DNA from: a phage
Sequence record: PZ445451.1
Length of the DNA: 64,000 nt
Strand: one strand, 5' to 3'
Below are positions 1 to 62,200 of this stretch, piece by piece (positions within the stretch are counted from its first letter, which is position 1; each line of letters opens with the position of its first letter). A program made the translations under genes and the position numbers. Below the pieces are notes generated by a model, which was not told where the DNA came from, made no database searches, and saw only the letters and a program-made list of their open reading frames with translations.

Positions 1-1
1 T

Positions 2-193
2 GGAATCTCCCAGGTAGTAGCAGTTATCACCGAGAAGAAAGGGGATGATCTTCACTCCTCATTGAATAGCTGGGCGGTCGCTAACTTTGGGCAATGGTCG
101 AGCGTTGAGTACATCGAATCCTACCAGGTGCCAACGATTAGCCTGACCGATCTCAACGTTGATCGTCTGTTATGCCTGGATCAATTAAACTAA
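2..193 (+). CDS. 3' end of an upstream gene (partial, unknown product)
   Basis: Frame open from window edge to TAA at 191-193; visibly GC-richer than the AT-rich region that follows. Confidence 0.3.
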   Translation, partial: GISQVVAVITEKKGDDLHSSLNSWAVANFGQWSSVEYIESYQVPTISLTDLNVDRLLCLDQLN

Positions 194-201
194 AAATAAT
201 A

Positions 202-229
202 TTGACAAGACAACTAAAATTAGTAAAAT
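202..229 (+). promoter_or_regulatory. sigma70-like early promoter (TTGACA-16-TAAAAT)
   Basis: Exact -35 TTGACA at 202-207, 16 bp spacer, -10 TAAAAT at 224-229, directly upstream of gene at 281. Confidence 0.5.
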
Positions 230-239
230 GTAATTCATA

Positions 240-259
240 GGGCGGCAATAGTGCCGCCC
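240..259 (+). repeat. GC-rich stem-loop (GGGCGGCA-ATAG-TGCCGCCC) in 5' leader; member of a recurring hairpin family
   Basis: 8 bp perfect stem between promoter and RBS; near-identical copy at 3478-3497. Confidence 0.55.
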
Positions 260-280
260 CTAGTAAGAGAGATTATCAAA

Positions 281-496
281 ATGGCTAATATCCGCACCTT
301 GTTAAAAAATGCAAAGCAAGTTTTATTTTCAGATGACGAGTATTTCAACAAAGACATTACAGGCGTGAAAAATTTAAAAGACGTGAAGGATGTTATCGGT
401 ATCCGTGGATCTTTACGTAAAGGTGACATATACGGTAACAAGGTGCAATATAAACTGTCAAAAGATTATGATTTTACTTTGACAATTATTTCATAA
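281..496 (+). CDS. hypothetical early protein (72 aa)
   Basis: Track ORF 251-496 trimmed to in-frame ATG 281 preceded by AGAGAG RBS. Confidence 0.55.
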   Translation: MANIRTLLKNAKQVLFSDDEYFNKDITGVKNLKDVKDVIGIRGSLRKGDIYGNKVQYKLSKDYDFTLTIIS

Positions 497-541
497 AACT
501 ACTTGTAAACCTGGTAAAATAAAGTAAACTATATTCATCAA

Positions 542-563
542 GGCGGTGGAATAGCCCACCGCC
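542..563 (+). repeat. GC-rich stem-loop (GGCGGTGG-AATAGC-CCACCGCC) immediately upstream of RBS
   Basis: 8 bp stem, no U-tract, followed by AAGAGAAGAGGA RBS. Confidence 0.5.
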
Positions 564-587
564 TAACAAAGAGAAGAGGAAAACATC

Positions 588-758
588 ATGATCACTTTCA
601 CTACCCGTGAAGCCGCTCGCAACGTTGCACGTAAAGTTAACGCCGCCAACCTGGGCGCTACGCTTAAAGCCCCGGTGAAAGATGAATCAGGAAAATGGAT
701 CTTTCCTGGTCTGCGTCACGCTGATAAGCTGGGAACATTAACGTTAAAAAATAAATAA
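588..758 (+). CDS. small hypothetical protein (56 aa), below the 60-aa track cutoff
   Basis: ATG 588 with strong RBS; hand-translated MITFTTREAARNVARKVNAANLGATLKAPVKDESGKWIFPGLRHADKLGTLTLKNK; stop 756-758. Confidence 0.4.
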   Translation: MITFTTREAARNVARKVNAANLGATLKAPVKDESGKWIFPGLRHADKLGTLTLKNK

Positions 759-765
759 TATCCGC

Positions 766-794
766 TTGACAGTAGCATCGTTTATAAGTAAAGT
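766..794 (+). promoter_or_regulatory. sigma70-like early promoter (TTGACA-17-TAAAGT)
   Basis: Exact TTGACA 766-771, 17 bp spacer, TAAAGT 789-794. Confidence 0.5.
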
Positions 795-803
795 AACAAC
801 AAC

Positions 804-824
804 GGCGGGAAATGGTTTCCCGCC
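804..824 (+). repeat. stem-loop GGCGGGAAA-TGG-TTTCCCGCC in 5' leader (hairpin family)
   Basis: 9 bp perfect stem; same core recurs at 3112, 4847 and 5706. Confidence 0.55.
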
Positions 825-844
825 ATCAATAAAGAGATAAGATT

Positions 845-1204
845 ATGAAATCAGTAAAAGCAATTAAAACTTACATTGTGTCGGCTATTTCTTTTGATGG
901 TACTACAACCGAAAAAGAAAAAATCACCGAACTGATGCGCCGTTTTAACTCTGAATACTGGTATCAATCTAATCGTGATCGTTATAATAACAATATGGTA
1001 CAAGCTGTTAAAAGCTGGTTACAAGGTTTACCGTCAGATATCAATATCGCTTTTAATTATAACGAGATCGATCAATTATTAATTGAATGGAAGTACATAA
1101 AAGAAACAAGCAAAGAAACAACCGTTACCCGTGAGCGGGAAAATTATTGGTTATATATTGCAAGCATGATCGTAACTTTGGCAAAATATCATAACGTAGC
1201 GTAA
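845..1204 (+). CDS. hypothetical early protein (119 aa)
   Basis: Track ORF; AAAGAG RBS; promoter plus leader hairpin upstream. Confidence 0.6.
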   Translation: MKSVKAIKTYIVSAISFDGTTTEKEKITELMRRFNSEYWYQSNRDRYNNNMVQAVKSWLQGLPSDINIAFNYNEIDQLLIEWKYIKETSKETTVTRERENYWLYIASMIVTLAKYHNVA

Positions 1205-1218
1205 TCGAGAGGAAAAAC

Positions 1219-1356
1219 ATGAACGCATCACAGCAGATCGAAAAATTCAACCGCAACAAAGCGAGTAAAGATTGGAACGAAGAGATCACCAAGAAAGGCG
1301 ACAAGCGGAACAAAACAAAAAGAGATCGCAGCAGCAAAAGATACTGGAACGAATAA
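1219..1356 (+). CDS. small basic protein (45 aa), not in track
   Basis: ATG 1219 after GAGAGGAAAAAC RBS; Lys/Arg-rich; followed by terminator. Confidence 0.4.
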   Translation: MNASQQIEKFNRNKASKDWNEEITKKGDKRNKTKRDRSSKRYWNE

Positions 1357-1363
1357 CAAAAAA

Positions 1364-1384
1364 GGGCGCAATAAGCGCCCTTTT
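1364..1384 (+). terminator. rho-independent terminator
   Basis: GGGCGC-AATAA-GCGCCC stem followed by TTTT. Confidence 0.6.
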
Positions 1385-1474
1385 AGCTTATATAGAGGCT
1401 TGTTGCTTATAGGCAAGGGTAACGCCAGGATAAGCCTATAAACCACGTTAGACGGCTTTACAGGAGCTTTAAAA

Positions 1475-1657
1475 ATGAAATTAGAGGAAATAAGCAAGGC
1501 ACTAGCCCAGGGGCAAAGGTTATGCGCCCGATATCGTGATCAATATGGCTTCATAACTAGCGGCGTGATCCTGGGGATGGAAGGCAATAAGATTTTTATT
1601 GACACGTTGAAAAACGTTGTATATAGTGACAATATAATCTCAATAAAACATATATGA
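1475..1657 (+). CDS. hypothetical protein (60 aa)
   Basis: Track ORF; CAGGAG RBS. Confidence 0.5.
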   Translation: MKLEEISKALAQGQRLCARYRDQYGFITSGVILGMEGNKIFIDTLKNVVYSDNIISIKHI

Positions 1658-1665
1658 GGCAAGAA

Positions 1666-2067
1666 ATGAAAAAATTATTGATCGCTGGTTTACTCTCTTT
1701 TGGCATGGTTGGAACATCTAGCGCGGCGATATCCTCCACAGTAGCAGAATTAAGCGCCGTTGATGCAATGGAAAACGTCATGATCATTAATAATGCGATC
1801 CCCGATGAAATCATGGAGGATTCACACATGATCGCTTATGGTGCTGTTACACAACTAACGGCAAAAATAGATAAATCTATTGTTAATGGCTTAAATGAAG
1901 ATGTACCATGTGAAATTATTACCAGTGTGCTCACTACTCAAAATTTTACGCCGTGGCTAAAAAGTATTCAAAAAGTACACAGTACAGCCGCAGATCGTAG
2001 CAATGAAAAACTAGTGTCAGCACTTGCAACGTATACCCTAGCAAAATGCACCGAAATAAAAGATTGA
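1666..2067 (+). CDS. secreted/periplasmic protein with N-terminal signal peptide
   Basis: Track ORF 1654-2067; ATG 1666 has a GAGG RBS; MKKLLIAGLLSFGMVGTSSAA looks like a Sec signal. Confidence 0.5.
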   Translation: MKKLLIAGLLSFGMVGTSSAAISSTVAELSAVDAMENVMIINNAIPDEIMEDSHMIAYGAVTQLTAKIDKSIVNGLNEDVPCEIITSVLTTQNFTPWLKSIQKVHSTAADRSNEKLVSALATYTLAKCTEIKD

Positions 2068-2114
2068 CAACATAGAAAGCACGTTATAAGATACACACAA
2101 CAAAGGAGAACTAC

Positions 2115-2417
2115 ATGAACGGCATAGCTAAAACGTTTTTTCTTTTTTCTGGTGTAAATGATCCATCAATAAAAGTCGATAGCGTAAAAGAAAACAATAC
2201 TATCACCGCTAAATTGTTTCAAGATGAAACAAATAACGTGCTAATCATTAATCTTAAAGAAATAACAAAAGGTTATTATACTATTGCTTACCATGCGATC
2301 TATAATGCTGGTACTAGTGAGGAAGTGCAAACAAGCAACAACGAAAGCGCGGCGCTACCTGGTGATCTGGTGCTGGGCGTTATCAGTTTAATTGTCAATG
2401 ATTTTTTTAAGGAGTAA
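2115..2417 (+). CDS. hypothetical protein (100 aa)
   Basis: Track ORF; AAAGGAGAA RBS. Confidence 0.55.
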   Translation: MNGIAKTFFLFSGVNDPSIKVDSVKENNTITAKLFQDETNNVLIINLKEITKGYYTIAYHAIYNAGTSEEVQTSNNESAALPGDLVLGVISLIVNDFFKE

Positions 2418-2421
2418 AACC

Positions 2422-2517
2422 ATGCCCTATTTACATTTATTTTTCGGTATCTTATTGACAGGATCTTTTTTCTTCTGTATGCTTGTTTCTATTGTAAACC
2501 ACGTTTTAAAACATTAA
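2422..2517 (+). CDS. small hydrophobic peptide (31 aa), not in track
   Basis: ATG 2422 after AAGGAG RBS; single predicted TM helix. Confidence 0.3.
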   Translation: MPYLHLFFGILLTGSFFFCMLVSIVNHVLKH

Positions 2518-2526
2518 GGAAACAGC

Positions 2527-2646
2527 ATGAAAATTATTCCCGTACAGTATAGCGTAATAAATCCAGCATATGAGGAAGGAAGGAAAACAAGCATGGCTTT
2601 ATGTTGTATTGCTACTATAGCCATGTTATTATACACTGTGTTTTAA
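2527..2646 (+). CDS. small membrane protein (39 aa), not in track
   Basis: ATG 2527 after AAGGAAACAGC; hydrophobic C-terminus. Confidence 0.3.
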   Translation: MKIIPVQYSVINPAYEEGRKTSMALCCIATIAMLLYTVF

Positions 2647-2675
2647 TAGGTTTTATAGTTGTACGCTTTAAAGGC

Positions 2676-2703
2676 TTGACAATTTTTTGTTATGCTTTAA
2701 AAT
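2676..2703 (+). promoter_or_regulatory. sigma70-like early promoter (TTGACA-16-TAAAAT)
   Basis: Exact consensus hexamers at 2676-2681 and 2698-2703. Confidence 0.5.
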
Positions 2704-2746
2704 ATATCTTGAAAACGGCAAAGGCCGCAAACAAAAGGGTAAAATT

Positions 2747-3070
2747 ATGAAATCTGTGATCGGTGTTTATTTGGATAATTCTGATTTTTTCTATCATCGC
2801 GCTCGTTTCCTTGATGCTATTGATATGATAGAATCAGGCTTTAAAGAATACCGCCTTGCACATGATGACCTGGAAGCATTACAGGGCAATAGTGTTTTTA
2901 CATTGCAAGCGAAAGCACTATGTAAAAGCCGGATCGACATTGCGAGCAAAAAGATAGAACGCGGCATGTCCTGGTTGCGCACCGCAGAAATCAACATGGG
3001 GCAATGGTACGGCAAAAACTTAGAAAATAAACATACCTTTGTCAATGTAGAAAATATTGAAGATTATTGA
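2747..3070 (+). CDS. hypothetical early protein (107 aa)
   Basis: Track ORF 2687-3070 trimmed to ATG 2747 downstream of the promoter. Confidence 0.55.
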   Translation: MKSVIGVYLDNSDFFYHRARFLDAIDMIESGFKEYRLAHDDLEALQGNSVFTLQAKALCKSRIDIASKKIERGMSWLRTAEINMGQWYGKNLENKHTFVNVENIEDY

Positions 3071-3099
3071 TTGACAGCACATCTAACGAGTAGTATATT
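3071..3099 (+). promoter_or_regulatory. sigma70-like early promoter (TTGACA-17-TATATT)
   Basis: Exact TTGACA 3071-3076; -10 at 3094-3099. Confidence 0.5.
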
Positions 3100-3111
3100 G
3101 TATCTCATAGA

Positions 3112-3132
3112 GCGGGGAAATGGTTTCCCCGC
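3112..3132 (+). repeat. stem-loop GCGGGGAAA-TGG-TTTCCCCGC in 5' leader (hairpin family)
   Basis: 9 bp stem immediately before RBS AAGAGATAAG. Confidence 0.55.
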
Positions 3133-3152
3133 CTTAAAAGAAGAGATAAGCT

Positions 3153-3437
3153 ATGAAGATCACAAAAGCACTTTCCAACTATGCAGCACGTCGCGGATTA
3201 TGCTTATCCGTTGAAAACTTAGGGAAAGAAGATTTTTTGTGTTTTTGGGAGCTTGAAAATGAAAGTGAATGGTTGTTCTCTTATTCTATCTGCGAAGATC
3301 AAAACGGTTGTTTGTTAACCTGGCGCGGTAATATCTATCTACCGGAAGAAATCAAAGAAGAATTGCCAGGCACGATCATGACTGAGAAACAGCTTAAGGA
3401 AGTGATTAATTTTGTAGGGCAAAACATTAAAAAATAA
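3153..3437 (+). CDS. hypothetical early protein (94 aa)
   Basis: Track ORF; promoter, leader hairpin and RBS upstream. Confidence 0.6.
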   Translation: MKITKALSNYAARRGLCLSVENLGKEDFLCFWELENESEWLFSYSICEDQNGCLLTWRGNIYLPEEIKEELPGTIMTEKQLKEVINFVGQNIKK

Positions 3438-3438
3438 T

Positions 3439-3467
3439 TTGACACTAGGCAAACAACGTAGTAAAGT
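3439..3467 (+). promoter_or_regulatory. sigma70-like early promoter (TTGACA-17-TAAAGT)
   Basis: Exact TTGACA 3439-3444. Confidence 0.5.
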
Positions 3468-3477
3468 TTATCACATA

Positions 3478-3497
3478 GGGCGGCAATAGTGCCGCTC
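3478..3497 (+). repeat. stem-loop GGGCGGCA-ATAG-TGCCGCTC (hairpin family, copy of 240-259)
   Basis: Near-identical to the hairpin at 240-259. Confidence 0.55.
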
Positions 3498-3518
3498 ATA
3501 ACAGAAGAGAAACAAATC

Positions 3519-3689
3519 ATGATCCCGACTATGTTTTATGTATCGCGCAAAGGTCACAATATTTTTTGGTCTGAAGATTTAAATGAAGCCATGACGTTTG
3601 CCCGTGATCGTGTTGCTATCGGTGGCGTTAACATTACTGTAACCGATGAAAACGGCATTGAATACTATAACGGCGACGATGAAGAGTAA
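3519..3689 (+). CDS. hypothetical protein (56 aa)
   Basis: Track ORF 3489-3689 trimmed to ATG 3519 after GAAGAGAAACAAATC RBS. Confidence 0.5.
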   Translation: MIPTMFYVSRKGHNIFWSEDLNEAMTFARDRVAIGGVNITVTDENGIEYYNGDDEE

Positions 3690-3696
3690 TTAATAA

Positions 3697-3717
3697 GGCG
3701 GGGGAGTATTCCCCGCC
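3697..3717 (+). repeat. intercistronic GC-rich stem-loop (GGCGGGGGA-GTA-TTCCCCGCC)
   Basis: 9 bp stem between stop of previous gene and RBS of next; no promoter in between. Confidence 0.5.
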
Positions 3718-3736
3718 GTCAATAAAGAGGTAAATC

Positions 3737-4006
3737 ATGAAAATATCTTTGGACGTTGCAATCAAGGCCATCGAATCCGGTTACACCCTGGTAAAAGATG
3801 ATAAGGCTAAAATAGTGCATCATGTTAACAAGGAAACAGGCGAAAGCATGATCACATATAAAGCCGCCTACTTTCTCCAATCAGTAGCAGATCCGCGCGT
3901 ACAACGCCAGGTTACAGCGGCTATTGCTAAAAAATTATGTGCTTTACAGGGCACAAGTTTTAACGAGATCGCCCCGTGTTTTGACTGGTCGAGCTTGAAA
4001 AAATAG
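3737..4006 (+). CDS. hypothetical protein (89 aa)
   Basis: Track ORF; AAAGAGG RBS. Confidence 0.6.
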   Translation: MKISLDVAIKAIESGYTLVKDDKAKIVHHVNKETGESMITYKAAYFLQSVADPRVQRQVTAAIAKKLCALQGTSFNEIAPCFDWSSLKK

Positions 4007-4007
4007 T

Positions 4008-4035
4008 TTGACAATATGCTGTTATCTGGTAAAGT
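4008..4035 (+). promoter_or_regulatory. sigma70-like early promoter (TTGACA-16-TAAAGT)
   Basis: Exact TTGACA 4008-4013. Confidence 0.5.
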
Positions 4036-4088
4036 GTACGACATAGGGCGAGGCAATAAGGCAACGCCCATTAATGAGGGGTAGAATC

Positions 4089-4193
4089 ATGTTAGAGAAA
4101 ATTTTCACGGTTGTAATAGTGGGCCTGGCGTTATCGGTTGGATTGGTTGCAACTATGGCTAACATGATCCTATCTTCCCACGGTATTGGATAA
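4089..4193 (+). CDS. small hydrophobic membrane peptide (34 aa), not in track
   Basis: ATG 4089 after GAGGGGTAGAATC; MLEKIFTVVIVGLALSVGLVATMANMILSSHGIG. Confidence 0.35.
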   Translation: MLEKIFTVVIVGLALSVGLVATMANMILSSHGIG

Positions 4194-4203
4194 GGTGAAT
4201 CAA

Positions 4204-4419
4204 ATGATCACGAATAAGACAGGTAAAACAGAATTTTTACGCAGCTTGCAAATAGGTAAACCTGAGATCTGGCATTGCACTAAATCCGCGCATAATGAAA
4301 TGAAAGATTTTACCGCTACTTTACAACGTGTTAAAATATCTATCACACAGAAAAAAGCCTTGTTAGTAGTAGAAAACGAGATCCCGCAAACCATTATTAT
4401 TGTCGAGCGTACAGCATGA
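4204..4419 (+). CDS. hypothetical protein (71 aa)
   Basis: Track ORF 4186-4419 trimmed to ATG 4204 (AAGGTG RBS). Confidence 0.5.
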   Translation: MITNKTGKTEFLRSLQIGKPEIWHCTKSAHNEMKDFTATLQRVKISITQKKALLVVENEIPQTIIIVERTA

Positions 4420-4802
4420 AAACTGAAATCATTAACGAAATGATCAACGGCTATAAAGAAGCCTTTATTTTTGCCGAACCAGCGACGGATCACAATGGGG
4501 AATATATTGAGAATCTAGACGATTATGATTTTTCTCCTAGCGCCCTGAAACGTATTACCAGCGATGTGACCGCCTTTTGTAGTGCCAATGTTGCCGCTAT
4601 CTCTGAGGCAATGAGCGACGGCGCTACAGCAAACCAGATCGGGAATGATTTACATTTTACCCGTAACGGTCACGGCGTAGGTTTTTGGGATCGCCCTGAA
4701 ATATACACTACTAACACCGCCAACCGTTTAACTGATGCAGCTAAATTAATGCCATTGGTGCATGCTTACATTGGTGAAGATAATTTGATTTATATTGACT
4801 AA
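4416..4802 (+). CDS. hypothetical protein (128 aa)
   Basis: Track ORF; start overlaps upstream stop (ATGA). Confidence 0.6.
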   Translation: MKTEIINEMINGYKEAFIFAEPATDHNGEYIENLDDYDFSPSALKRITSDVTAFCSANVAAISEAMSDGATANQIGNDLHFTRNGHGVGFWDRPEIYTTNTANRLTDAAKLMPLVHAYIGEDNLIYID

Positions 4803-4807
4803 AAGTG

Positions 4808-4836
4808 TTGACACCGATCCCCAATATGTTATTATT
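4808..4836 (+). promoter_or_regulatory. sigma70-like early promoter (TTGACA-17-ATTATT)
   Basis: Exact TTGACA 4808-4813. Confidence 0.45.
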
Positions 4837-4846
4837 TACCACGTAA

Positions 4847-4865
4847 GCGGGAAATGGTTTCCCGC
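4847..4865 (+). repeat. stem-loop GCGGGAAA-TGG-TTTCCCGC in 5' leader (hairpin family)
   Basis: Same core as 804-824 and 5706-5724. Confidence 0.55.
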
Positions 4866-4889
4866 CAGGTAATCAAAAAGGTAAATACT

Positions 4890-5279
4890 ATGCGCAACCT
4901 GGTTTCTGTTTCTAACGTTGAAAAATTTCAATCTTTACAGGGTATCGTTAACAACGTAGCGCCTTTTTTAGTCAACGGCTTGATTGCAAAGATGAAAAAT
5001 AAACATCATGCGGCATGGTCTGCTTACTGCTTTGATAATGATGAAAAAGCGGCTGAAATGATGCTAAATATGCTGTTAGACAGTGTAGAATCATCTTTAC
5101 CGGAAAACATCGCAGAAGAGATCACCTATCGTTATAATATGGCGATCACTTACCAGGAGGTTGCGCAATTTAATATGATGGACGATGACGAACAACAGGA
5201 TCAGGAAATGTTTTGGGAGTATGCTGATCGTCAATCGGCTTTTGATGAAAAATTAGCGATGTATTATAACGAATATTAA
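4890..5279 (+). CDS. hypothetical acidic protein (129 aa)
   Basis: Track ORF 4854-5279 trimmed to ATG 4890 (AAAAAGG RBS). Confidence 0.6.
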   Translation: MRNLVSVSNVEKFQSLQGIVNNVAPFLVNGLIAKMKNKHHAAWSAYCFDNDEKAAEMMLNMLLDSVESSLPENIAEEITYRYNMAITYQEVAQFNMMDDDEQQDQEMFWEYADRQSAFDEKLAMYYNEY

Positions 5280-5296
5280 TACACGGTAAAAGAAAG

Positions 5297-5319
5297 GGGC
5301 GCACTAAGCGCCCTTTTTT
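5297..5319 (+). terminator. rho-independent terminator
   Basis: GGGCGC-ACTAA-GCGCCC stem followed by TTTTTT. Confidence 0.65.
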
Positions 5320-5664
5320 GTATTCTTTTTTCACGATGGAAACAACACGTAAAGAATAGGCGTAAAGGTGGCGTAAAACCATCTAAAACCGACTGTAACC
5401 GCTTAAACAAGGTAGGAATGATTAATCACCTTACCAGGGTGAAAAAGCTGTTATAAAGCTACCTAGAGCGTTTAAAGCACATAGGGAATAATTTGCTTTT
5501 TATCTTGCCTTTTATCCTGCTTTTGATTATTATTATGGAACGGGCGGCACCTGGGGACAGGGGAAGATAATCACCGGAAGATCCCGCTATATATTGATAG
5601 CTAATACCTATTAAACAACAAAACATCAAAGGAATAAACTATCAAATCTTTACAATCCTACCTA

Positions 5665-5693
5665 TTGACACAGGATCACCCTTATACTAATAT
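5665..5693 (+). promoter_or_regulatory. sigma70-like early promoter (TTGACA-17-TAATAT)
   Basis: Exact TTGACA 5665-5670. Confidence 0.5.
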
Positions 5694-5705
5694 GTATCCC
5701 GTAGG

Positions 5706-5724
5706 GCGGGAAATGGTTTCCCGC
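5706..5724 (+). repeat. stem-loop GCGGGAAA-TGG-TTTCCCGC in 5' leader (hairpin family)
   Basis: Identical core to 4847-4865. Confidence 0.55.
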
Positions 5725-5743
5725 TTGATATAGGAATCATACC

Positions 5744-5977
5744 ATGATCGAACAAATTAAAAGCACTACACCAAATGTTAACGGCAATGTTTCACACTTT
5801 ATCGGTGATAATGAAAGGGGCACACCATACGCCGCCGTAACCGTGCAACCTAATGGCGATTATTGGTTTACCGTGTACGGATCATACTCTTTCGGACGCC
5901 CGGCACATGATAAGATCTTGCAAGCGGTTAAACCTGCGGGGAAGAATATCACAGCAGAAAAATTTTATAAAAAATAG
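5744..5977 (+). CDS. hypothetical protein (77 aa)
   Basis: Track ORF; promoter, leader hairpin and RBS upstream. Confidence 0.6.
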   Translation: MIEQIKSTTPNVNGNVSHFIGDNERGTPYAAVTVQPNGDYWFTVYGSYSFGRPAHDKILQAVKPAGKNITAEKFYKK

Positions 5978-6052
5978 CTTGCTTTATTTCTTCTGTTAAC
6001 TTATAGTTATCGCGTAGGGCAAACAATTTTAAACGGTAAACGAGGAATCACC

Positions 6053-6436
6053 ATGAGCAATATCATCAACCTGGCAGCGACTGTAAACGGTAAAGATTTT
6101 AACGGCGCTGTAGACCGTGATCCTATGTGGTGCTTATCAGTGTTTAAAGGCGACCTGGTTGAAGTTAGAACAACCGAAGGCTATAGCGATGATTATAAAT
6201 GCGAGATCCATTTACATAACTGGTACACGGGGAAAACTTATGCGCTGAATCACGCATTTATCGGGAAAATTGAATATCGCGAAATGATCGACGAAGAAAC
6301 GGGGCAAGATTTTAGCGATTATGTTTATATCCGTTCAGAAACATTAGCCGAACGCTTGATCGAGAAAATGAAAGCAAAAAATAAAATTAATTTAGCTCAT
6401 TGGCTTGATATAACAAATGATCCGGCTTACAAGTAA
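6053..6436 (+). CDS. hypothetical protein (127 aa)
   Basis: Track ORF; CGAGGAATCACC RBS. Confidence 0.6.
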   Translation: MSNIINLAATVNGKDFNGAVDRDPMWCLSVFKGDLVEVRTTEGYSDDYKCEIHLHNWYTGKTYALNHAFIGKIEYREMIDEETGQDFSDYVYIRSETLAERLIEKMKAKNKINLAHWLDITNDPAYK

Positions 6437-6451
6437 ATAACATTTCACACC

Positions 6452-6478
6452 AGGGCGCACAAAGCGCCCTTTCTTTTT
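6452..6478 (+). terminator. rho-independent terminator
   Basis: AGGGCGC-ACAAA-GCGCCCT stem followed by TTCTTTTT. Confidence 0.65.
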
Positions 6479-6566
6479 ACCTAAATAAAGATGATAGCTT
6501 TTACCTATCAAAAACGTTCACCGAAAAAAGTGAATAGATCGCGGTATCGAGCTAATCAAGGAGCAG

Positions 6567-6707
6567 ATGAACAACCATACCATGAAGATCATAAGGCGCT
6601 TACAACGTGTTTTAGACCGCTTATTTTTAATTTCTCAATGTAACTATCGGGCAAAAACAGCCTTTTTCTTGTCTTTCCTCTTAAATGATAATCATTCTTA
6701 TTTATAG
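6567..6707 (+). CDS. possible small protein (46 aa), not in track
   Basis: ATG 6567 after CAAGGAGCAG RBS; 3' end overlaps a Fur-box-like repeat. Confidence 0.25.
   Translation: MNNHTMKIIRRLQRVLDRLFLISQCNYRAKTAFFLSFLLNDNHSYL
6684..6700. promoter_or_regulatory. Fur-box-like motif AATGATAATCATTCTTA (direct-repeat copy 1)
   Basis: Matches the core of the enterobacterial Fur consensus GATAATGATAATCATTATC; repeated at 6742-6758. Confidence 0.35.
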
Positions 6708-6739
6708 CTGATTATTTATGCAATAAACTGCATAATGCA

Positions 6740-6757
6740 ATAATGATAATCATTCTT
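6740..6757. promoter_or_regulatory. Fur-box-like motif ATAATGATAATCATT (15/15 to consensus positions 2-16)
   Basis: Exact 15-mer match to the Fur consensus core. Confidence 0.4.
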
Positions 6758-7512
6758 AACTTATGACCATCTAACCTATAAAATAATAAGTTATCTAACT
6801 AAATTAAAACTAATTATCCCACCTTTATTTATAACTTACTTTTACTATCTCATTGATAACCTTATATTAAACAACAATAACCAATATAAATCATTACTAA
6901 GCTAACTATAATCTATCTAACCCTTAAAACTATAACTATAATCTATCGAATTGTTGCACAAAGTAACTATTAAATTGTTAGTAACTTTACTAAATAATTA
7001 ATATCCTATCTATTTATGATCTAATCTTTACCTTACTATCTATTACCTAAATAACCATTTCATACAGAAATTATTTCATACAATAACTATAACAAGAAAT
7101 ATAATTCGCAAGCGTATCATTAGCAGCCTATGCCGGACACATAGGCGGCTAATAATAACGCAACTACACACCCCACATAATAACCATCACCGATAGTTAT
7201 TATTTGTGCTTATGTAGCTTGCAACAATTGCAAGCGCAACAATATACATGGTATATTGTATCCCTTACATTGTTGCGGTGCGTTATTATTAGCTAATGTT
7301 TGGAACATTGGCTATAATATAAGCTACATATAATAAGCTATACAATAATAAACATAATGAATAATGACACTGATGATCATAATGCGCCACCTTCCAGGGG
7401 GCGCTATGTGAACACAAAGAAATCTTTCTTGTCAAGAAAAATATCACCATTATTGCGCAAAATTATTTATATCTGAACAGATGATTTTTCATACTATTGC
7501 CCCCTATAGTAT

Positions 7513-7546
7513 CCCTATTTGTTGTAATGTATTCCCCTATTTGTTG
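7513..7546. repeat. direct repeat CCCTATTTGTTG x2
   Basis: 12-mer at 7513-7524 and again at 7535-7546. Confidence 0.5.
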
Positions 7547-7619
7547 AGCCTACTCTCTTAAAAGCGCAATAAATTAGAATTATCTTGATTTTTAGGTAGT
7601 TTTATAGTATAGAAAATAT

Positions 7620-7638
7620 GCAAATGATAATCATTATC
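7620..7638. promoter_or_regulatory. Fur-box-like motif GCAAATGATAATCATTATC (17/19 to consensus)
   Basis: TGATAATCATTATC is an exact 14-mer match to the 3' part of the Fur consensus. Confidence 0.4.
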
Positions 7639-7805
7639 AGCTATCTTCCACAGGTGGCACTATTTCACGCCAGATCATTTCATTTGGCAAGGTGTATATA
7701 GATGTTTAGAAATGCCAAGCCATTGATTTACTTAGAATTTATCTGTTTTGTTGTGAGTAGTGCCTTTCTTGCTCAGAAAATAATCAAAAGTCTTATAAGT
7801 CATTG

Positions 7806-7833
7806 AATGATAATGCAAATGATAATTATTCTC
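7806..7833. promoter_or_regulatory. overlapping GATAAT-hexamer array (Fur-box-like)
   Basis: AATGATAATGCAAATGATAATTATTCTC; two overlapping partial Fur-like sites. Confidence 0.3.
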
Positions 7834-7955
7834 ATTGATATTTGAGGGGGACGGTCGGCAGAAATCGGGGGCGCTAAAAATCGCGTTAAGCACCTCTCGC
7901 AAGCGAGCAGTATTTTGCGGCAAGTTATTGATATTATTGGCTTTACGCTTATGGA

Positions 7956-8063
7956 AAGGGGGTGTGTCGAAATAAATCGGGTATACCGGAAAATTTTTGT
8001 GGCATAGATATTTATTTGTCTATATTATGTACAAAGGGGTGTGTTAAAAATAATAGGTATATA
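7956..8063. repeat. pair of ~30 bp direct repeats (iteron-like) AAAGGGG(G)TGTGT..AAATAA..GGTATA
   Basis: Copy 1 at 7956-7987, copy 2 at 8033-8063, inside a 1.8 kb AT-rich non-coding region. Confidence 0.45.
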
Positions 8064-25197: not shown

Positions 25198-25943
25198 TAG
25201 TCCTCCTCTAAAGTAGAATAAAATTGTAACGTATTTGAATCATCAAAATATGCAAAGGTTAAATTACCATTGAAGCAAGATCCTGTATCCATATATACCC
25301 TATTACTGCTAATTACAGGTTTAGGAACATAAGAATGCCCGTGAAATACATAATCTACTCCTGAAACTCTAGGAAGAAGAATCCCTTCAAGGGCGCAATC
25401 TATCATATCACGATCCCACATTAAAGATTCTGTGAATCGAGATACTTGCTCTTTATTCATATTCAAACAAAATGGCAAAACTTCTGTCACTGGTAAATGT
25501 TCCAAAACTGAAGGATACCCACCGTGAATAAAGCCTAGTTTCATATCACGATAATTGACAACAAGTACAACAGGTAAATCTTCTAGCATCAAAGCAAGAG
25601 CAGTTGCACCCTCTTCTCCACACTCGTCTAGAACTGTATGGCCTCCGTTCTGAAACCAACATTCGTAATATCGTCTATCACCTTCTAGCAACCCTTTAAT
25701 CATCATATCTTCATGATTTCCACGAATACCATAACGATTTAGCTTTCTGGTGAATTCAACAACACAACGAAAATTCTGCTTGCCGCGATCTGTAAGATCT
25801 CCTAAAGATACAACAACATCTTGATCTCGGATACCTAAAGTATTAACACCTTTCTGGTACAAATCAAAGCAACCATGTAAATCACCAATAATAAACAGGT
25901 CTTGATCATCTTTTACACTAATTTCTTGATATACTAGCATCAA
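25197..25943 (-). CDS. Ser/Thr protein phosphatase (calcineurin-like metallophosphoesterase, lambda-PPase type)
   Basis: GDLHGC, GDLTDRG and GNHED metallophosphatase motifs. Confidence 0.8.
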   Translation of the reverse strand: MMLVYQEISVKDDQDLFIIGDLHGCFDLYQKGVNTLGIRDQDVVVSLGDLTDRGKQNFRCVVEFTRKLNRYGIRGNHEDMMIKGLLEGDRRYYECWFQNGGHTVLDECGEEGATALALMLEDLPVVLVVNYRDMKLGFIHGGYPSVLEHLPVTEVLPFCLNMNKEQVSRFTESLMWDRDMIDCALEGILLPRVSGVDYVFHGHSYVPKPVISSNRVYMDTGSCFNGNLTFAYFDDSNTLQFYSTLEED

Positions 25944-26266
25944 CTCTCCTCAAAATCCATAAGTATAAAGATATTAACTTTACCTTCTATATTATGTTCT
26001 ACAACAAGATCTGCAAATTCTTTGTAGGCTTTTTCTTCTATTTGTTCAATGTGAGACGCTACATCTTTGTATATAGCGTCACCATCTACTTTAACAAGGA
26101 GGAATAGAGATCTTACTTCAATCTCTTTATTTTTACGGGGTAGAAAATCGACGGCTTCTTGTATACGCCAGCCGAGATACCCTGGAGTCCTTTGAATATC
26201 CTCCAAATGACTTTCTAAGATTTCCCTTCCTTTGTCTATTAAAGCCTGTTCTGTCGTTATTTTCAT
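25940..26266 (-). CDS. hypothetical protein (108 aa)
   Basis: Track ORF; ATGA overlap. Confidence 0.55.
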   Translation of the reverse strand: MKITTEQALIDKGREILESHLEDIQRTPGYLGWRIQEAVDFLPRKNKEIEVRSLFLLVKVDGDAIYKDVASHIEQIEEKAYKEFADLVVEHNIEGKVNIFILMDFEES

Positions 26267-59485: not shown

Positions 59486-59561
59486 GGTTCCATAGCTCAC
59501 TGACGAGAGCGAACACCTCATAAGTGTCGAGGGCAGGGATTGTAACCCTGGGGAACCACCA
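59486..59561 (+). tRNA. tRNA-Met/Ile2 (anticodon CAT), atypical T-loop
   Basis: Hand-folded cloverleaf: 6/7 acceptor pairs, D-stem GCTC/GAGC, anticodon loop CTCATAA, T-stem CAGGG/CCCTG, loop ATTGTAA (non-canonical), CCA encoded. Confidence 0.5.
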
Positions 59562-59592
59562 TTTAAAAGGAGGTGTTATGCATCTCCTATAT

Positions 59593-59678
59593 GCAAGTGT
59601 GGTGGAATTGGTGATACACATTGTGCTTAAAACGCAACGCTTAAATGATTGAGGGTTCGAATCCCTCCACTTGCACCA
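59593..59678 (+). tRNA. tRNA-Leu (anticodon TAA), type II
   Basis: Acceptor GCAAGTG/CACTTGC, anticodon loop CTTAAAA, 13-nt variable arm, T-arm GAGGG-TTCGAAT-CCCTC, A73, CCA encoded. Confidence 0.75.
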
Positions 59679-59680
59679 AC

Positions 59681-59786
59681 GCCTAGTAGGGTATTTGGTA
59701 ATTCCGAGGCCATCAAAGCCTGAAAAATATGTTAGACCGCTTTGTCTAACTAAATACGAAATATGGTTCGATTCCATAACTAGGCT
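59681..59786 (+). ncRNA. aberrant tRNA-like element (~105 nt; perfect acceptor plus canonical T-arm but no standard D/anticodon arms)
   Basis: GCCTAGT (59681-87) pairs perfectly with ACTAGGC (59779-85); T-arm TATGG-TTCGATT-CCATA; internal hairpin GTTAGAC-CGCTTT-GTCTAAC. Confidence 0.3.
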
Positions 59787-59860
59787 TCAATTTAAATAGT
59801 AATTTTAGTAAAAAATATCTTGACATTTACTTAGTTTTTTTGTTATAGTCGTTATGAAAA

Positions 59861-59942
59861 CGGGGTGTATCTCACCTGACTTCTAATCAGGCGTTAACCG
59901 AGTAATTGGAGTATGCAGGTTCGAATCCTGTCACCCCGGCCA
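59861..59942 (+). tRNA. tRNA-Arg(TCT)-like RNA lacking a D-arm
   Basis: 7 bp acceptor, canonical anticodon arm CCTGA-CTTCTAA-TCAGG, canonical T-arm GCAGG-TTCGAAT-CCTGT, CCA encoded; only 7 nt between acceptor and anticodon stem and a 23-nt insert before the T-arm; TTGACA promoter at 59820. Confidence 0.45.
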
Positions 59943-60005
59943 AAAAGTTTTAAAAACTGCTTGACAAGCAAGATAGTTTTATGTTAGATTTAAAGTATGA
60001 TAACT

Positions 60006-60095
60006 GGAAGGTAGGGCGCAGCGGTGCGCAACCAGGTTTGAACCCTGGCCCATTGTAGCGATACGGTGATGGTTCGACTCCATTATCTTCCTCCA
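60006..60095 (+). tRNA. tRNA-Ser (anticodon TGA), type II
   Basis: Acceptor GGAAGGT, 3 bp D-stem, anticodon arm CCAGG-TTTGAAC-CCTGG, 19-nt variable arm, T-arm GATGG-TTCGACT-CCATT, CCA encoded. Confidence 0.7.
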
Positions 60096-60101
60096 AATTC
60101 A

Positions 60102-60266
60102 ATGAGTGATTTTATGAATTATAAAACTATTGGACAGGTTGTTACCGGAGTTAAGATTGTAAATAATAAAGTTGTTTATGAGTATTCTAATCTTCAACAA
60201 TCTGAAGATGGTAAGAATATTCGTATGGTAAAAGCAGAACAAAAAGATTCCGGTTGTTTTGAATAA
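60102..60266 (+). CDS. small protein embedded in the tRNA cluster (54 aa)
   Basis: Track ORF 60066-60266 trimmed to the first ATG beyond tRNA-Ser; weak RBS. Confidence 0.35.
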   Translation: MSDFMNYKTIGQVVTGVKIVNNKVVYEYSNLQQSEDGKNIRMVKAEQKDSGCFE

Positions 60267-60274
60267 TTAAGAAC

Positions 60275-60360
60275 GGTAGATTGGTGAAATGGTAGCCACA
60301 ACAGTTTGCTAAACTGTCGTCGGAAACGGCGTGTAGGTTCAAGTCCTACATCTACCGCCA
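60275..60360 (+). tRNA. tRNA-Ser (anticodon GCT), type II
   Basis: Acceptor GGTAGAT/ATCTACC, anticodon arm ACAGT-TTGCTAA-ACTGT, 15-nt variable arm, T-arm GTAGG-TTCAAGT-CCTAC, G73, CCA. Confidence 0.75.
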
Positions 60361-60495
60361 AGTTATCTTTAATGTAGCTTGTAATCTTACTTTAGCAGAG
60401 TAAATCTTCGGCAAGTGGCGGTAACCACTTTACCGATACCCCAATACTTCATAGCTAAGTGCCGCAAACACTGGCTATTTTAAAGATAATTTTAT

Positions 60496-60570
60496 ACATC
60501 GTTAGCCAAGCGGTAAGGCACTTGACTTTTAATCAAGGGAGCGAAGGTTCGAATCCTTCACGATGTACCA
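60496..60570 (+). tRNA. tRNA-Lys (anticodon TTT)
   Basis: Acceptor ACATCGT/ACGATGT, anticodon arm CTTGA-CTTTTAA-TCAAG, T-arm GAAGG-TTCGAAT-CCTTC, CCA. Confidence 0.7.
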
Positions 60571-60575
60571 AACAC

Positions 60576-60662
60576 GTAGGTATCGCATAGCGGCAATTGC
60601 TGGAGACTGTAAATCTCCTGCCCTTCGGGGCTTCGTTGGTTCGAGTCCAACTACCTGCACCA
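60576..60662 (+). tRNA. tRNA-Tyr (anticodon GTA), type II
   Basis: Acceptor GTAGGTA/TACCTGC, anticodon arm GGAGA-CTGTAAA-TCTCC, 16-nt variable arm, T-arm GTTGG-TTCGAGT-CCAAC, A73, CCA. Confidence 0.75.
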
Positions 60663-60669
60663 AATTAAA

Positions 60670-60754
60670 GATGGATTGGCCTAGTGGTTGGGCGACGGAC
60701 TGTTAATCCGTGAACGAAAGTTCTAGCAAGGTTCAAATCCTTGATCCATCGCCA
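60670..60754 (+). tRNA. type II (Ser-like scaffold, G73) tRNA carrying an Asn anticodon GTT
   Basis: Acceptor GATGGAT/ATCCATC, 3 bp D-stem, anticodon arm ACGGA-CTGTTAA-TCCGT, 15-nt variable arm GAACGAAAGTTCTAG, T-arm CAAGG-TTCAAAT-CCTTG, G73, CCA. Confidence 0.6.
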
Positions 60755-60833
60755 AATAGTGCTTGTAGAGTTAATAGAAACCTCTAGAATTTTCTAGAAT
60801 TGTAGGTATCAAATCCTACCAAGCAAATATTTT

Positions 60834-60908
60834 GCTCCTATCGTATAACGGCTATTACGGTTGCCTTGTAAGCAACTTATCAGGGTTCGAGTCCTTGTGG
60901 GAGCACCA
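60834..60908 (+). tRNA. tRNA-Thr (anticodon TGT)
   Basis: Acceptor GCTCCTA/TGGGAGC, anticodon arm GTTGC-CTTGTAA-GCAAC, T-arm CAGGG-TTCGAGT-CCTTG, CCA. Confidence 0.7.
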
Positions 60909-60925
60909 ATTTTAACTCTAAAGGA

Positions 60926-61255
60926 GTGTATGTGACAGAAAAAGAGTTAGAGAAATATTTTAATATCAATGTTTTCGATGGTTTTGATGATATCGAAGAT
61001 GTTGAAAGATATTATGAAGTAGAGTTAGATAAGGATAACATTGTAATTCTTTCTGCCACTTATGATTGTGCATATTATGAAGGCGAATCTCACGTTTATT
61101 TTTATGATATGAAAACATCTTTGTTTTATGAAGTACACGCATATCATTGTTCTTGTTATGGTTTAGAAGGTCAGTGGGAACCTGAAGAAATAGGTGATTT
61201 GGATTTTACTATTGCATATCTAAACAGACGTGGTGCATCTACTATTTTAAAATAA
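60926..61255 (+). CDS. hypothetical acidic protein (109 aa) inside the tRNA cluster
   Basis: Track ORF (GTG start) with AAGGAG RBS. Confidence 0.6.
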   Translation: MYVTEKELEKYFNINVFDGFDDIEDVERYYEVELDKDNIVILSATYDCAYYEGESHVYFYDMKTSLFYEVHAYHCSCYGLEGQWEPEEIGDLDFTIAYLNRRGASTILK

Positions 61256-61310
61256 ATATCAAAAGCCTCTTGACAAAGGGGCTAATAATATGTTAGAGTA
61301 ATATTGTTAA

Positions 61311-61385
61311 GCGGGTATAGTGTTAATGGTAGCATATGAGGTTTCCACCCTCCAGGTGCAGGTTCAAGTCCTGTTACTCGCTCCA
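61311..61385 (+). tRNA. tRNA-Gly (anticodon TCC)
   Basis: Acceptor GCGGGTA/TACTCGC, anticodon loop TTTCCAC, T-arm GCAGG-TTCAAGT-CCTGT, CCA; TTGACA promoter at 61270. Confidence 0.65.
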
Positions 61386-61484
61386 AGATTATTTAAATGG
61401 AATCGCTAGAGAAAATTTCTCTTTTCGCTCATGGTTTTCTCCTTCAAACTCTAGCGGTTCTTTTTAAATGATTTTTTAGTTTAT

Positions 61485-61559
61485 TGGAGATTAGCCTAGT
61501 GGGAAGGCAACGGCCTTTGAAGTCGTGATGACTAGGTTCGATTCCTAGATCTCCAGCCA
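61485..61559 (+). tRNA. tRNA-Gln (anticodon TTG)
   Basis: Acceptor TGGAGAT/ATCTCCA, anticodon arm ACGGC-CTTTGAA-GTCGT, T-arm CTAGG-TTCGATT-CCTAG, G73, CCA. Confidence 0.7.
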
Positions 61560-61566
61560 ATATTTA

Positions 61567-61642
61567 CAGTGCGTAGCGCAGTTGGTAGCGTGGGAGCTTT
61601 GGATGCTTCGGGTCGCAGGTTCGAGTCCTGCCGCACTGACCA
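61567..61642 (+). tRNA. tRNA-Pro (anticodon TGG)
   Basis: C1-G72 acceptor (typical of bacterial tRNA-Pro), anticodon arm GGAGC-TTTGGAT-GCTTC, T-arm GCAGG-TTCGAGT-CCTGC, A73, CCA. Confidence 0.75.
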
Positions 61643-61647
61643 AATTT

Positions 61648-61722
61648 GCAGAGATAGCTGAGACGGATTAGTGCTACCCTGAAAAGGTAGAAAGGATGGA
61701 TCGTTACCATCTCTCTGCACCA
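61648..61722 (+). tRNA. tRNA-Phe (anticodon GAA), atypical T-loop and weak D-stem
   Basis: Perfect 7 bp acceptor GCAGAGA/TCTCTGC, anticodon arm CTACC-CTGAAAA-GGTAG, T-stem GATGG/CCATC with loop ATCGTTA, CCA. Confidence 0.55.
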
Positions 61723-61799
61723 AATAACACCATCCAAGGAGTAGACTTGGTTAACTGTCAATATCACATTGAGGCTTCTTACAGTGGTGTACTTATTAT

Positions 61800-61884
61800 G
61801 GCTAAGTGGTGGAATGGTATACACGATACGCTTAGAACGTATTGCCCCAAGGGATTGTGAGTTCGAGTCTCACCTTAGCTACCA
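61800..61884 (+). tRNA. tRNA-Leu (anticodon TAG), type II
   Basis: Anticodon arm ATACG-CTTAGAA-CGTAT, 14-nt variable arm with CCC/GGG stem, T-arm GTGAG-TTCGAGT-CTCAC, A73, CCA. Confidence 0.7.
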
Positions 61885-61899
61885 AATTATTACAGATTG

Positions 61900-61978
61900 T
61901 GCGGGATAGAGGAGTCTGGTCGTCCTCGCCAGTTTCATATGCTGGAGATCATCGGTTCAAATCCGATTCCCGCCTCCA
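61900..61978 (+). tRNA. tRNA-Met or Ile2 (anticodon CAT) with 1:72 mismatch and 11-nt D-loop
   Basis: Acceptor TGCGGGA/TCCCGCC (U1xC72), D-stem GAGG/CCTC, anticodon arm CCAGT-TTCATAT-GCTGG, T-arm ATCGG-TTCAAAT-CCGAT, CCA. Confidence 0.6.
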
Positions 61979-62045
61979 ATAAATACCTCCCTTCTGGTGT
62001 AATGATTAAGTTACATTGACACTTCAAGGAACTCATAGCCGGGTA

Positions 62046-62119
62046 GATTTAAAAGAGTATGGTACTCAATATGGCTCCAAACCATAGATCAAGGGGTTCG
62101 ATTCCTCACCTTGCTGCCA
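62046..62119 (+). pseudogene. tRNA-Trp(CCA)-like element with unpaired acceptor stem (probable pseudo-tRNA)
   Basis: Good anticodon arm TATGG-CTCCAAA-CCATA and T-arm-like GGGG-TTCGATT-CCTC ending in CCA, but 5'/3' acceptor strands do not pair. Confidence 0.3.
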
Positions 62120-62124
62120 ATTAT

Positions 62125-62200
62125 TGTGGTATCGTACAGATGGTTAGTACACTCGACCGATAATCGAGAAACAACGGTTCGACTCCGTTTACCACGACCA
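62125..62200 (+). tRNA. tRNA-Ile (anticodon GAT)
   Basis: Acceptor TGTGGTA/TACCACG, D-stem GTAC/GTAC, anticodon arm CTCGA-CCGATAA-TCGAG, T-arm AACGG-TTCGACT-CCGTT, A73, CCA. Confidence 0.7.

Follow-up and report, generated by a model that had tools for sequence, protein, structure and literature searches.

A dispersed promoter-hairpin cassette in the presumed early region of phi92-like coliphages, with a candidate 5'-terminal mRNA stem-loop

A family of short GC-rich hairpins precedes the start codons of small genes at one end of a 64,000-nucleotide stretch of phage DNA (sequence record PZ445451.1; hereafter the window, numbered from its first letter). Positions 1-6600, in which these hairpins lie, are 100% identical to Escherichia phage PaulScherrer (Bas60, MZ501100.1), a phi92-like member of the genus Justusliebigvirus in the Stephanstirmvirinae, and 94-97% identical to many relatives. 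They cover all but the upstream third of a cluster in which about 30 small genes, on the plus strand and annotated as hypothetical, follow one another (83.9-93.8 kb of the record, where window position equals record position minus 87100). This small open reading frame (ORF) cluster is presumed to be the early, host-takeover region.

Nine hairpins had been listed in a preliminary description of the window, and all nine are present, on the plus strand, as members of a real family. The first, GGGCGGCA-atag-TGCCGCCC at 240-259, is perfect, begins 10 nt past the -10 box of a sigma-70 promoter (TTGACA-16-TAAAAT, 202-229) and is followed by an ATG at 281; its predicted leader folds with a minimum free energy (MFE) of -16.9 kcal/mol (z-score, -4.2). 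The second cassette comprises a promoter-like TTGTAA-16-TAAACT read from the sequence (503-530), the perfect hairpin AGGCGGTGG-aatagc-CCACCGCCT at 541-564, whose loop is inverted (gctatt) in the related locus L006, and an ATG at 588. The promoter at 202 and those that follow were located by a consensus scan. TTGACA-17-TAAAGT at 766-794 precedes the perfect hairpin GGCGGGAAA-tgg-TTTCCCGCC (804-824; ATG at 845), which scored 36.7 bits with a covariance model, and TTGACA-17-TATATT at 3071-3099 precedes GCGGGGAAA-tgg-TTTCCCCGC (3112-3132, perfect; ATG at 3153). The next promoter (TTGACA-17-TAAAGT, 3439-3467) leads into a hairpin of the 240 type, GGGCGGCA-atag-TGCCGCTC, with one G:U pair (…CCGCTC) at 3478-3497, ahead of an ATG at 3519. 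An intercistronic, promoter-less copy, GGCGGGGGA-gta-TTCCCCGCC at 3697-3717, directly follows the stop codon at 3687-3689 and precedes an ATG at 3737; its stem is 7 bp when perfect pairs are counted and 9 bp if one G:U is included. Downstream of TTGACA-16-TAAAGT (4008-4035) lies a degenerate variant, GGGCG-(14 nt)-CGCCC at 4046-4069, which has a 5-bp outer stem and was missed by the covariance model. The last two members share the perfect hairpin GCGGGAAA-tgg-TTTCCCGC: one at 4847-4865, with a TG-extended promoter (TTGACA-16-TATTAT, 4808-4835) and a likely start codon at 4890, and one at 5706-5724, with TTGACA-17-TAATAT (5665-5693) and an ATG at 5744.

Nine perfect stems with a length of 7 bp or more and 5 or more G/C occur in positions 1-6600, namely seven family hairpins and the stems of two terminators (1360 and 6452), against a chance expectation of 0.11 ± 0.34 (maximum, 3) in 300 dinucleotide shuffles. 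Perfect pairing, originally ascribed to the whole family, thus holds for these seven and fails for the G:U-containing stem at 3478 and the degenerate site at 4046. The reported linkage to exact TTGACA promoters was borne out (seven of nine hairpins, with TTGTAA ahead of the 541 hairpin and no promoter ahead of the 3697 copy). A covariance model built from 18 hairpin copies and run without filters recovered eight copies in the window, all best on the plus strand (234-5731), and none in the remaining 58 kb (5732-64000). For the rest of the genome, scanned except for record positions 50-60 kb, the same model gave 13 copies at record positions 84,047-92,831, that is, within an 8.8-kb early cluster and all on the sense strand; it found none at record positions 1-50,000, and about 131 kb outside the early cluster carries no copy. 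Five copies with the same layout, beyond those in the window, lie upstream of it in the same genome, at window-equivalent positions -3047, -2690, -2244, -406 and -77. Beyond this genome, the comparison is based on GenBank phage records, since an IMG/VR search with one early protein gave only two loci. An 87-bp cassette matched at 680 places in 160 of these records, and this layout also occurs in Phapecoctavirus, Vequintavirus and one Citrobacter phage.

The preliminary description had overlooked that the hairpin is one part of a dispersed repeat of about 90 bp, which unites promoter, hairpin and ribosome-binding site. The whole promoter-hairpin-leader unit recurs as paralogous matches of 50-100 bp at 75-95% identity. 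Each cassette consists, in order, of AT-rich DNA, a near-consensus sigma-70 promoter, a start region (gTAtCAC-R-TAG), the GC-rich hairpin with a stem of 7-10 bp, an A-rich leader with a weak Shine-Dalgarno (SD) sequence, and the ATG. The promoters have an exact TTGACA and TAnnnT separated by 16-18 nt, with A/T-rich DNA upstream of the -35 box. The measurements of this anatomy come from a pool of 11 loci that belong to Justusliebigvirus, Phapecoctavirus, Vequintavirus (FV3, JEP1 and EduardKellenberger) and Citrobacter phage Tr1. Across 84 unique promoter-linked cassettes, the distance from the -10 hexamer to the first paired base is 6-14 nt (mode, 10), and the ATG follows 17-28 nt (mode, 21) past the stem, the same range as in the window. 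A census that started from promoters, with no selection on GC hairpins, gave a spacing of 8-14 nt, with exactly 10 nt in 43 of 91 cases, and a G-rich 5' arm in all 33 unique post-promoter hairpins. Anchored on the invariant GCGG, the consensus reads A/T-rich – TTGACA – 16-17 nt – TAaaaT – gTAtCAC-R-TAG-G – GCGG…, with a conserved C-R dinucleotide 7-8 nt past the -10 box.

Transcription from sigma-70 promoters is expected to start 7-8 nt past the -10 box. Given that the C-R step lies at this distance, the RNA should begin with (A/G)UAG, with the stem directly after. Promoter geometry (8-14 nt from the -10 end to the stem; mode, 10) thereby agrees with the earlier proposal that the hairpins sit at mRNA 5' ends, and would place the stem at about +3 to +6 of the predicted transcript, 2-5 nt from its predicted 5' end. 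All nine predicted leaders of the window fold as a 5' hairpin (MFE, -12.3 to -18.7 kcal/mol; z-scores down to -5); the rest of the leader is mostly unpaired in most of them, and the SD sequence and AUG are free. At 25862-25990 of locus L002 (window-equivalent about -1240 to -1110), a full promoter and a short GGGGC/GCCCC hairpin are followed after about 35 nt by a second full promoter, with no ORF, which may represent a very short transcript or a decayed cassette.

Cassettes of similar build have been described as promoter-early stem-loop (PeSL) elements in the T4-like phages RB49/phi1, T4/PST and KVP40/nt-1 (PMC2839356, PMC4122927). Both are dispersed intergenic repeats (about 100 bp in PeSL) in which AT-rich upstream DNA and a consensus sigma-70 early promoter are combined with a stable G-then-C stem-loop, an SD sequence and a start codon. 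Both are restricted to a plastic early/ORFan region (in the present case, the 8.8-kb early ORFan cluster), and in both, related phages differ by indels and replacements whose boundaries coincide with cassettes. As the repeat is common to two phage subfamilies and coincides with mosaic boundaries, we regard it as PeSL-like; it is a variant of known elements and no new kind of system. Nonetheless, the lineage differs (Stephanstirmvirinae and Vequintavirinae, not T4-like phages), as does the layout. In PeSL, most stem-loops overlap the -35 and -10 boxes or occupy the gap that separates them, whereas those described here always begin 8-14 nt past the -10 box, so that the cassette's own promoter transcribes them, an arrangement that only the rare "downstream of -10" class of PeSL resembles (PMC2839356). 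The classic PeSL layout, with a hairpin containing the -35 box, is found in rV5-like phages as a second repeated element, tttatttttaGATGGCCTTGACTCCAGGGCCATCaataaagTAAACT (positions 5852, 6474, 6806 and 10193 in L004 [FV3] and 5754, 6384, 6719 and 10120 in L005 [JEP1]).

PeSL stem-loops are interpreted as terminators, and those of RB49/phi1 cut lacZ expression as strongly as rrnB T1 (PMC2839356); PeSL cassettes are also described as forming mini-circles. An equivalent role here would be that of an attenuator or terminator: by stopping or damping transcription that reads through from the preceding cassettes, the hairpins would leave each early gene mainly under the control of its own promoter. 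The stems share with Rho-independent terminators a GC-rich stem of 7-10 bp and a loop of 3-6 nt, they resemble the phage's own terminator stems in being G-rich and then C-rich, promoter-less copies such as that at 3697 lie between cistrons, and annotation pipelines have labeled the hairpins as terminators in phage Paula. However, they lack a U-tract, on which ground the preliminary description had rightly set them apart from intrinsic terminators. Only 0-4 T (usually two or fewer) occur in the 9 nt past each of the nine stems, where the following sequence is A-rich, against 5-8 for the terminators. Canonical terminators are present separately on the plus strand, as an A-tract/T-tract-flanked stem at 1360-1384, at 5291-5319 with its T-tract, and at 6452-6478 (stem at 6452-6470 plus TTCTTTTT), where the last closes the early cluster. 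Moreover, the hairpins follow promoters and not genes, their polarity is fixed relative to the promoter, and termination downstream of the cassette's own start site would kill its own transcripts. We therefore consider this role unlikely. Intrinsic terminators on the opposite strand were also dismissed: a scan flagged 3717-3697 and 828-800 (minus), yet no minus-strand genes end there. An inverted repeat of 8 bp (TTATAGGC…GCCTATAA) lies in the non-coding spacer (1385-1474) that separates the terminator at 1360 from the following ORF.

Comparison of the hairpins across copies shows that base pairing is maintained while sequence changes. In an 18-sequence alignment, 8 of 10 stem pairs have changes on both sides, with a covariation score of 0.381 against 0.143 for shuffled and at most 0.165 for slid controls; for 66 distinct copies, in an alignment fitted to the covariance model, the score was 0.363 against 0.165 for shuffled. 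The inner stem alternates among CA/TG, GAAA/TTTC, TGG/CCA and CGGA/TCCA, even at a single orthologous site. For example, the 3478 hairpin of PaulScherrer has orthologues in Paula/KMB37 and phAPEC8 whose inner stems are GAAA/TTTC or CGGA/TCCA. Other phages carry unrelated stems at the equivalent place (GGGGCG, GGGGAG, GGGGGG, GGGGCAA and AGGCCGTA). The four central pairs, GCGG/CCGC, are near-invariant, unlike the inner stems. The two sequence types distinguished in the preliminary description have this core in common, and at orthologous sites one type may stand in place of the other. The loop sequence varies both between orthologues and between paralogues (UGG, UAG, UUG, CUA, UGU, AAC, CAC, AUAG, AUGG, AUGA, ACGG and CUAU), and at three orthologous hairpins the loop has been swapped for its exact reverse complement (aatagc/gctatt, atag/ctat and tag/cta). 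These minute between-arm inversions are located at L006 7386, L008 7371 and L008 4814, compared with window 541, window 240 and L002 24857, respectively. Exact inversions of this kind show that pairing or exchange between the arms takes place in DNA and that the loop sequence is not read.

These data bear on two of the roles first proposed for the hairpins, as RNase III processing sites or as sites for a regulator that recognizes the TGG/ATAG loops. E. coli RNase III normally needs roughly two helical turns of double-stranded RNA, and stems of 7-10 bp fall far below its usual length requirement, which makes processing sites unlikely. A phage translational repressor (RegA-like) or antiterminator (boxB-like) might be expected given the place of the hairpin between the 5' end and the SD sequence, which suits translational control, and given the conserved GCGG/CCGC core. 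Yet the loops are unconserved and invertible, whereas nut/boxB hairpins have a conserved loop and a boxA partner; no boxA-like partner was seen here, and Rfam scans at gathering and E-value thresholds returned nothing credible for the hairpins. A specific RNA-protein site of either sort is, in our judgment, very improbable. Another reading is that the GCGG/CCGC-core hairpin is no passive structure but a specific tag, by which a dedicated factor of the phage would recognize early mRNAs or the DNA of the early region. Such a factor could be a nuclease or binding protein specific for the hairpin, whose action would silence or shield all early mRNAs at once, or a recombination system for the excision and insertion of ORFan modules at the hairpins. 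We think this reading quite unlikely.

The cassettes also coincide with mosaic boundaries between related phages. Long homology blocks often stop within them, as in ZCKP1 (3099-3717, 3998-4858 and 5504-5707) and phAPEC8 (3099-3724, 4043-4858 and 5515-5714), and cassette zones, which make up 13% of the region, account for 24 of the 53 distinct breakpoints. In phage inny, an additional ORF (inny_203) with its own cassette is inserted between two cassettes, and in phAPEC8 the 3737-4006 gene is deleted so that the 3697-type hairpin abuts the 4046-type hairpin. Since cassettes are dispersed repeats, we infer that they serve as junctions where gene modules are gained, lost and swapped. Alternatively, the palindrome may act in double-stranded or extruded DNA, either as a recombination or strand-switch hotspot for early modules or, at +3 to +25, as an operator for a phage or host repressor of early promoters. 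The breakpoints and the module insertions or deletions at cassettes agree with this, as do the three loop inversions, which show intrastrand pairing or arm-to-arm exchange in DNA, the near-invariant core, a position like that of classic operators (e.g., lacO1), and the tolerance of C:A mismatches about as well as G:U. Conversely, a G-rich 5' arm in 33 of 33 hairpins is unexpected for a symmetric DNA site, the freely variable inner stems and loops are unlike a sequence-specific operator, and promoter-less copies cannot be operators. The hairpin core was furthermore rejected as the recombination point itself: 8 of 53 breakpoints lie within 3 nt of a hairpin (covering 3.6%; P = 6e-4 against the whole region), but the enrichment was lost against intergenic DNA alone (P = 0.13). 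We rate a purely DNA-level element as rather unlikely, and a recombination role is not exclusive, as it is compatible with a function in RNA and may coexist with it.

The explanation that we favor, with a confidence only slightly above even, is that the hairpin is the 5'-terminal mRNA stem-loop of a PeSL-like early cassette, protecting transcripts against RppH and RNase E and insulating the ribosome site. Being stable and unavoidably transcribed from its own promoter, the hairpin should lie a few nucleotides from the 5' triphosphate end. Host RNA polymerase would start at the purine 7-8 nt past the -10 box, and the 7-10-bp hairpin would then form 3-5 nt from that end of the early mRNA, directly upstream of the ribosome footprint. 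There it would most likely act like a cap and hinder RppH and 5'-end-dependent entry of RNase E, as do the stem-loops of ompA, papA and T7 gene 10, and would also leave the ribosome-binding site free of pairing with the short leader, such that any ORFan placed behind a cassette would gain strong, predictable expression. Promoter-less intercistronic copies could shield processed 5' or 3' ends in the same way; the 3697 copy would fit a papA-like processed end. The cassettes may double as junctions for module shuffling, as PeSL elements do.

Several known systems make such a role plausible. Among phages, a precedent for a 5' stabilizing stem-loop is found in the T7 gene 10 leader. RNase E acts much faster on an accessible 5' monophosphate than on a base-paired 5' end, RppH requires unpaired 5' nucleotides, and 5'-terminal stem-loops such as those of ompA and papA lengthen mRNA life (reviewed in PMC3997798, citing Emory 1992, Bouvet & Belasco 1992, Arnold 1998 and Bricker 1999). 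Like ompA hp1, papA and the T7 gene 10 leader, the cassettes have a stable hairpin (predicted here) a few nucleotides from the mRNA 5' end, with a short leader and ribosome site after it. Structure is conserved over sequence in these systems as in the present family, though here the GCGG/CCGC core is invariant, and papA offers a parallel for the promoter-less intercistronic copy. They differ in being single and experimentally proven, whereas about 13 hairpins per genome occur here in a repeated promoter cassette and their stabilizing effect is predicted. Among the three roles put forward in the preliminary description, 5' stabilization is thus the best fit, with a stable stem 2-5 nt from the predicted 5' end and an unpaired SD sequence and AUG, and it is retained as a probable function.

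Nonetheless, a number of observations weigh against this explanation. RppH might still act if 3-5 nucleotides are unpaired. Our literature search found no start-site mapping, transcriptome or half-life data for these genera, so that the start site is predicted from promoter geometry only. Some early promoters (e.g., those at 2064 and 2676) have no hairpin or merely one of 4 bp. Mismatches within stems amount to about four independent G:U against two C:A events, too few for an asymmetry that would mark selection on the sense-strand RNA, and one C:A variant (GCGGCGGA/TCCACCGC) is kept at six sites. The non-significant enrichment of breakpoints at the hairpin core counts here as well. Lastly, the tight spacing, the G-rich polarity and the invariant core could derive from common descent and gene conversion of paralogous cassettes, not from selection on RNA.

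The hairpins have been given various labels in public records. In phage Paula they are annotated as terminators, often on the wrong strand, and in phAPEC8 (GenBank JX561091) identical 20-nt sequences are entered as "putative promoter determined with PHIRE", a label that reflects mere repetition of a 20-mer; a complete sigma-70 promoter lies upstream of these sequences. The hairpins go unmentioned in the rV5 genome paper. We rejected a T7/SP6-type promoter: the likeness between CACATAGGG and CACTATAGGG needs a gap, upstream specificity positions mismatch, and a full sigma-70 promoter precedes each site. N4-type hairpin promoters were dismissed on the same grounds, and no phage RNA polymerase was present in the portion of the annotation that was inspected. 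The annotated start of the GenBank coding sequence bas60_0140 (window 4854-5279) is an ATG that belongs to the loop (AAATGG) of the hairpin. A more plausible start is the ATG at 4890, which is in frame, has an SD sequence and serves as the start in phage Paula. A loop ATG is likewise present in other tgg-loop hairpins.

Among therapeutic and model coliphages (e.g., those in the BASEL collection), phi92-, phAPEC8- and rV5-like myoviruses are common, and their early regions are annotated almost entirely as hypothetical. The shared cassette corrects recurrent mis-annotations, including terminators on either strand, PHIRE promoters and ORF starts at a loop ATG, and its recognition delimits early transcription units. 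The cassettes are also compact, strong and probably insulated expression parts, and they provide a testable example, from beyond the T4 group, of how phages may rearrange ORFan modules and stabilize the mRNAs for host takeover.

Further features were noted around the early cluster. Downstream of it, about 1.5 kb (window about 6470-8000) has no convincing ORF and contains several short direct and inverted repeats; this stretch is the counterpart of a "non-coding" box on the rV5 genome map. Near-consensus Fur boxes (e.g., AAATGATAATCATTATCAG) are found in non-coding DNA flanking the cluster on both sides, at window 6683-6711, 6741-6769, 7622-7650 and 7817-7845 and, upstream of the cluster, at L002 22990-23110. 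Judged by their sequence, these boxes suggest iron/Fur-linked regulation or titration of Fur by the phage. At the far end of the window, 15 tRNA genes are clustered on the plus strand at 59486-62200.

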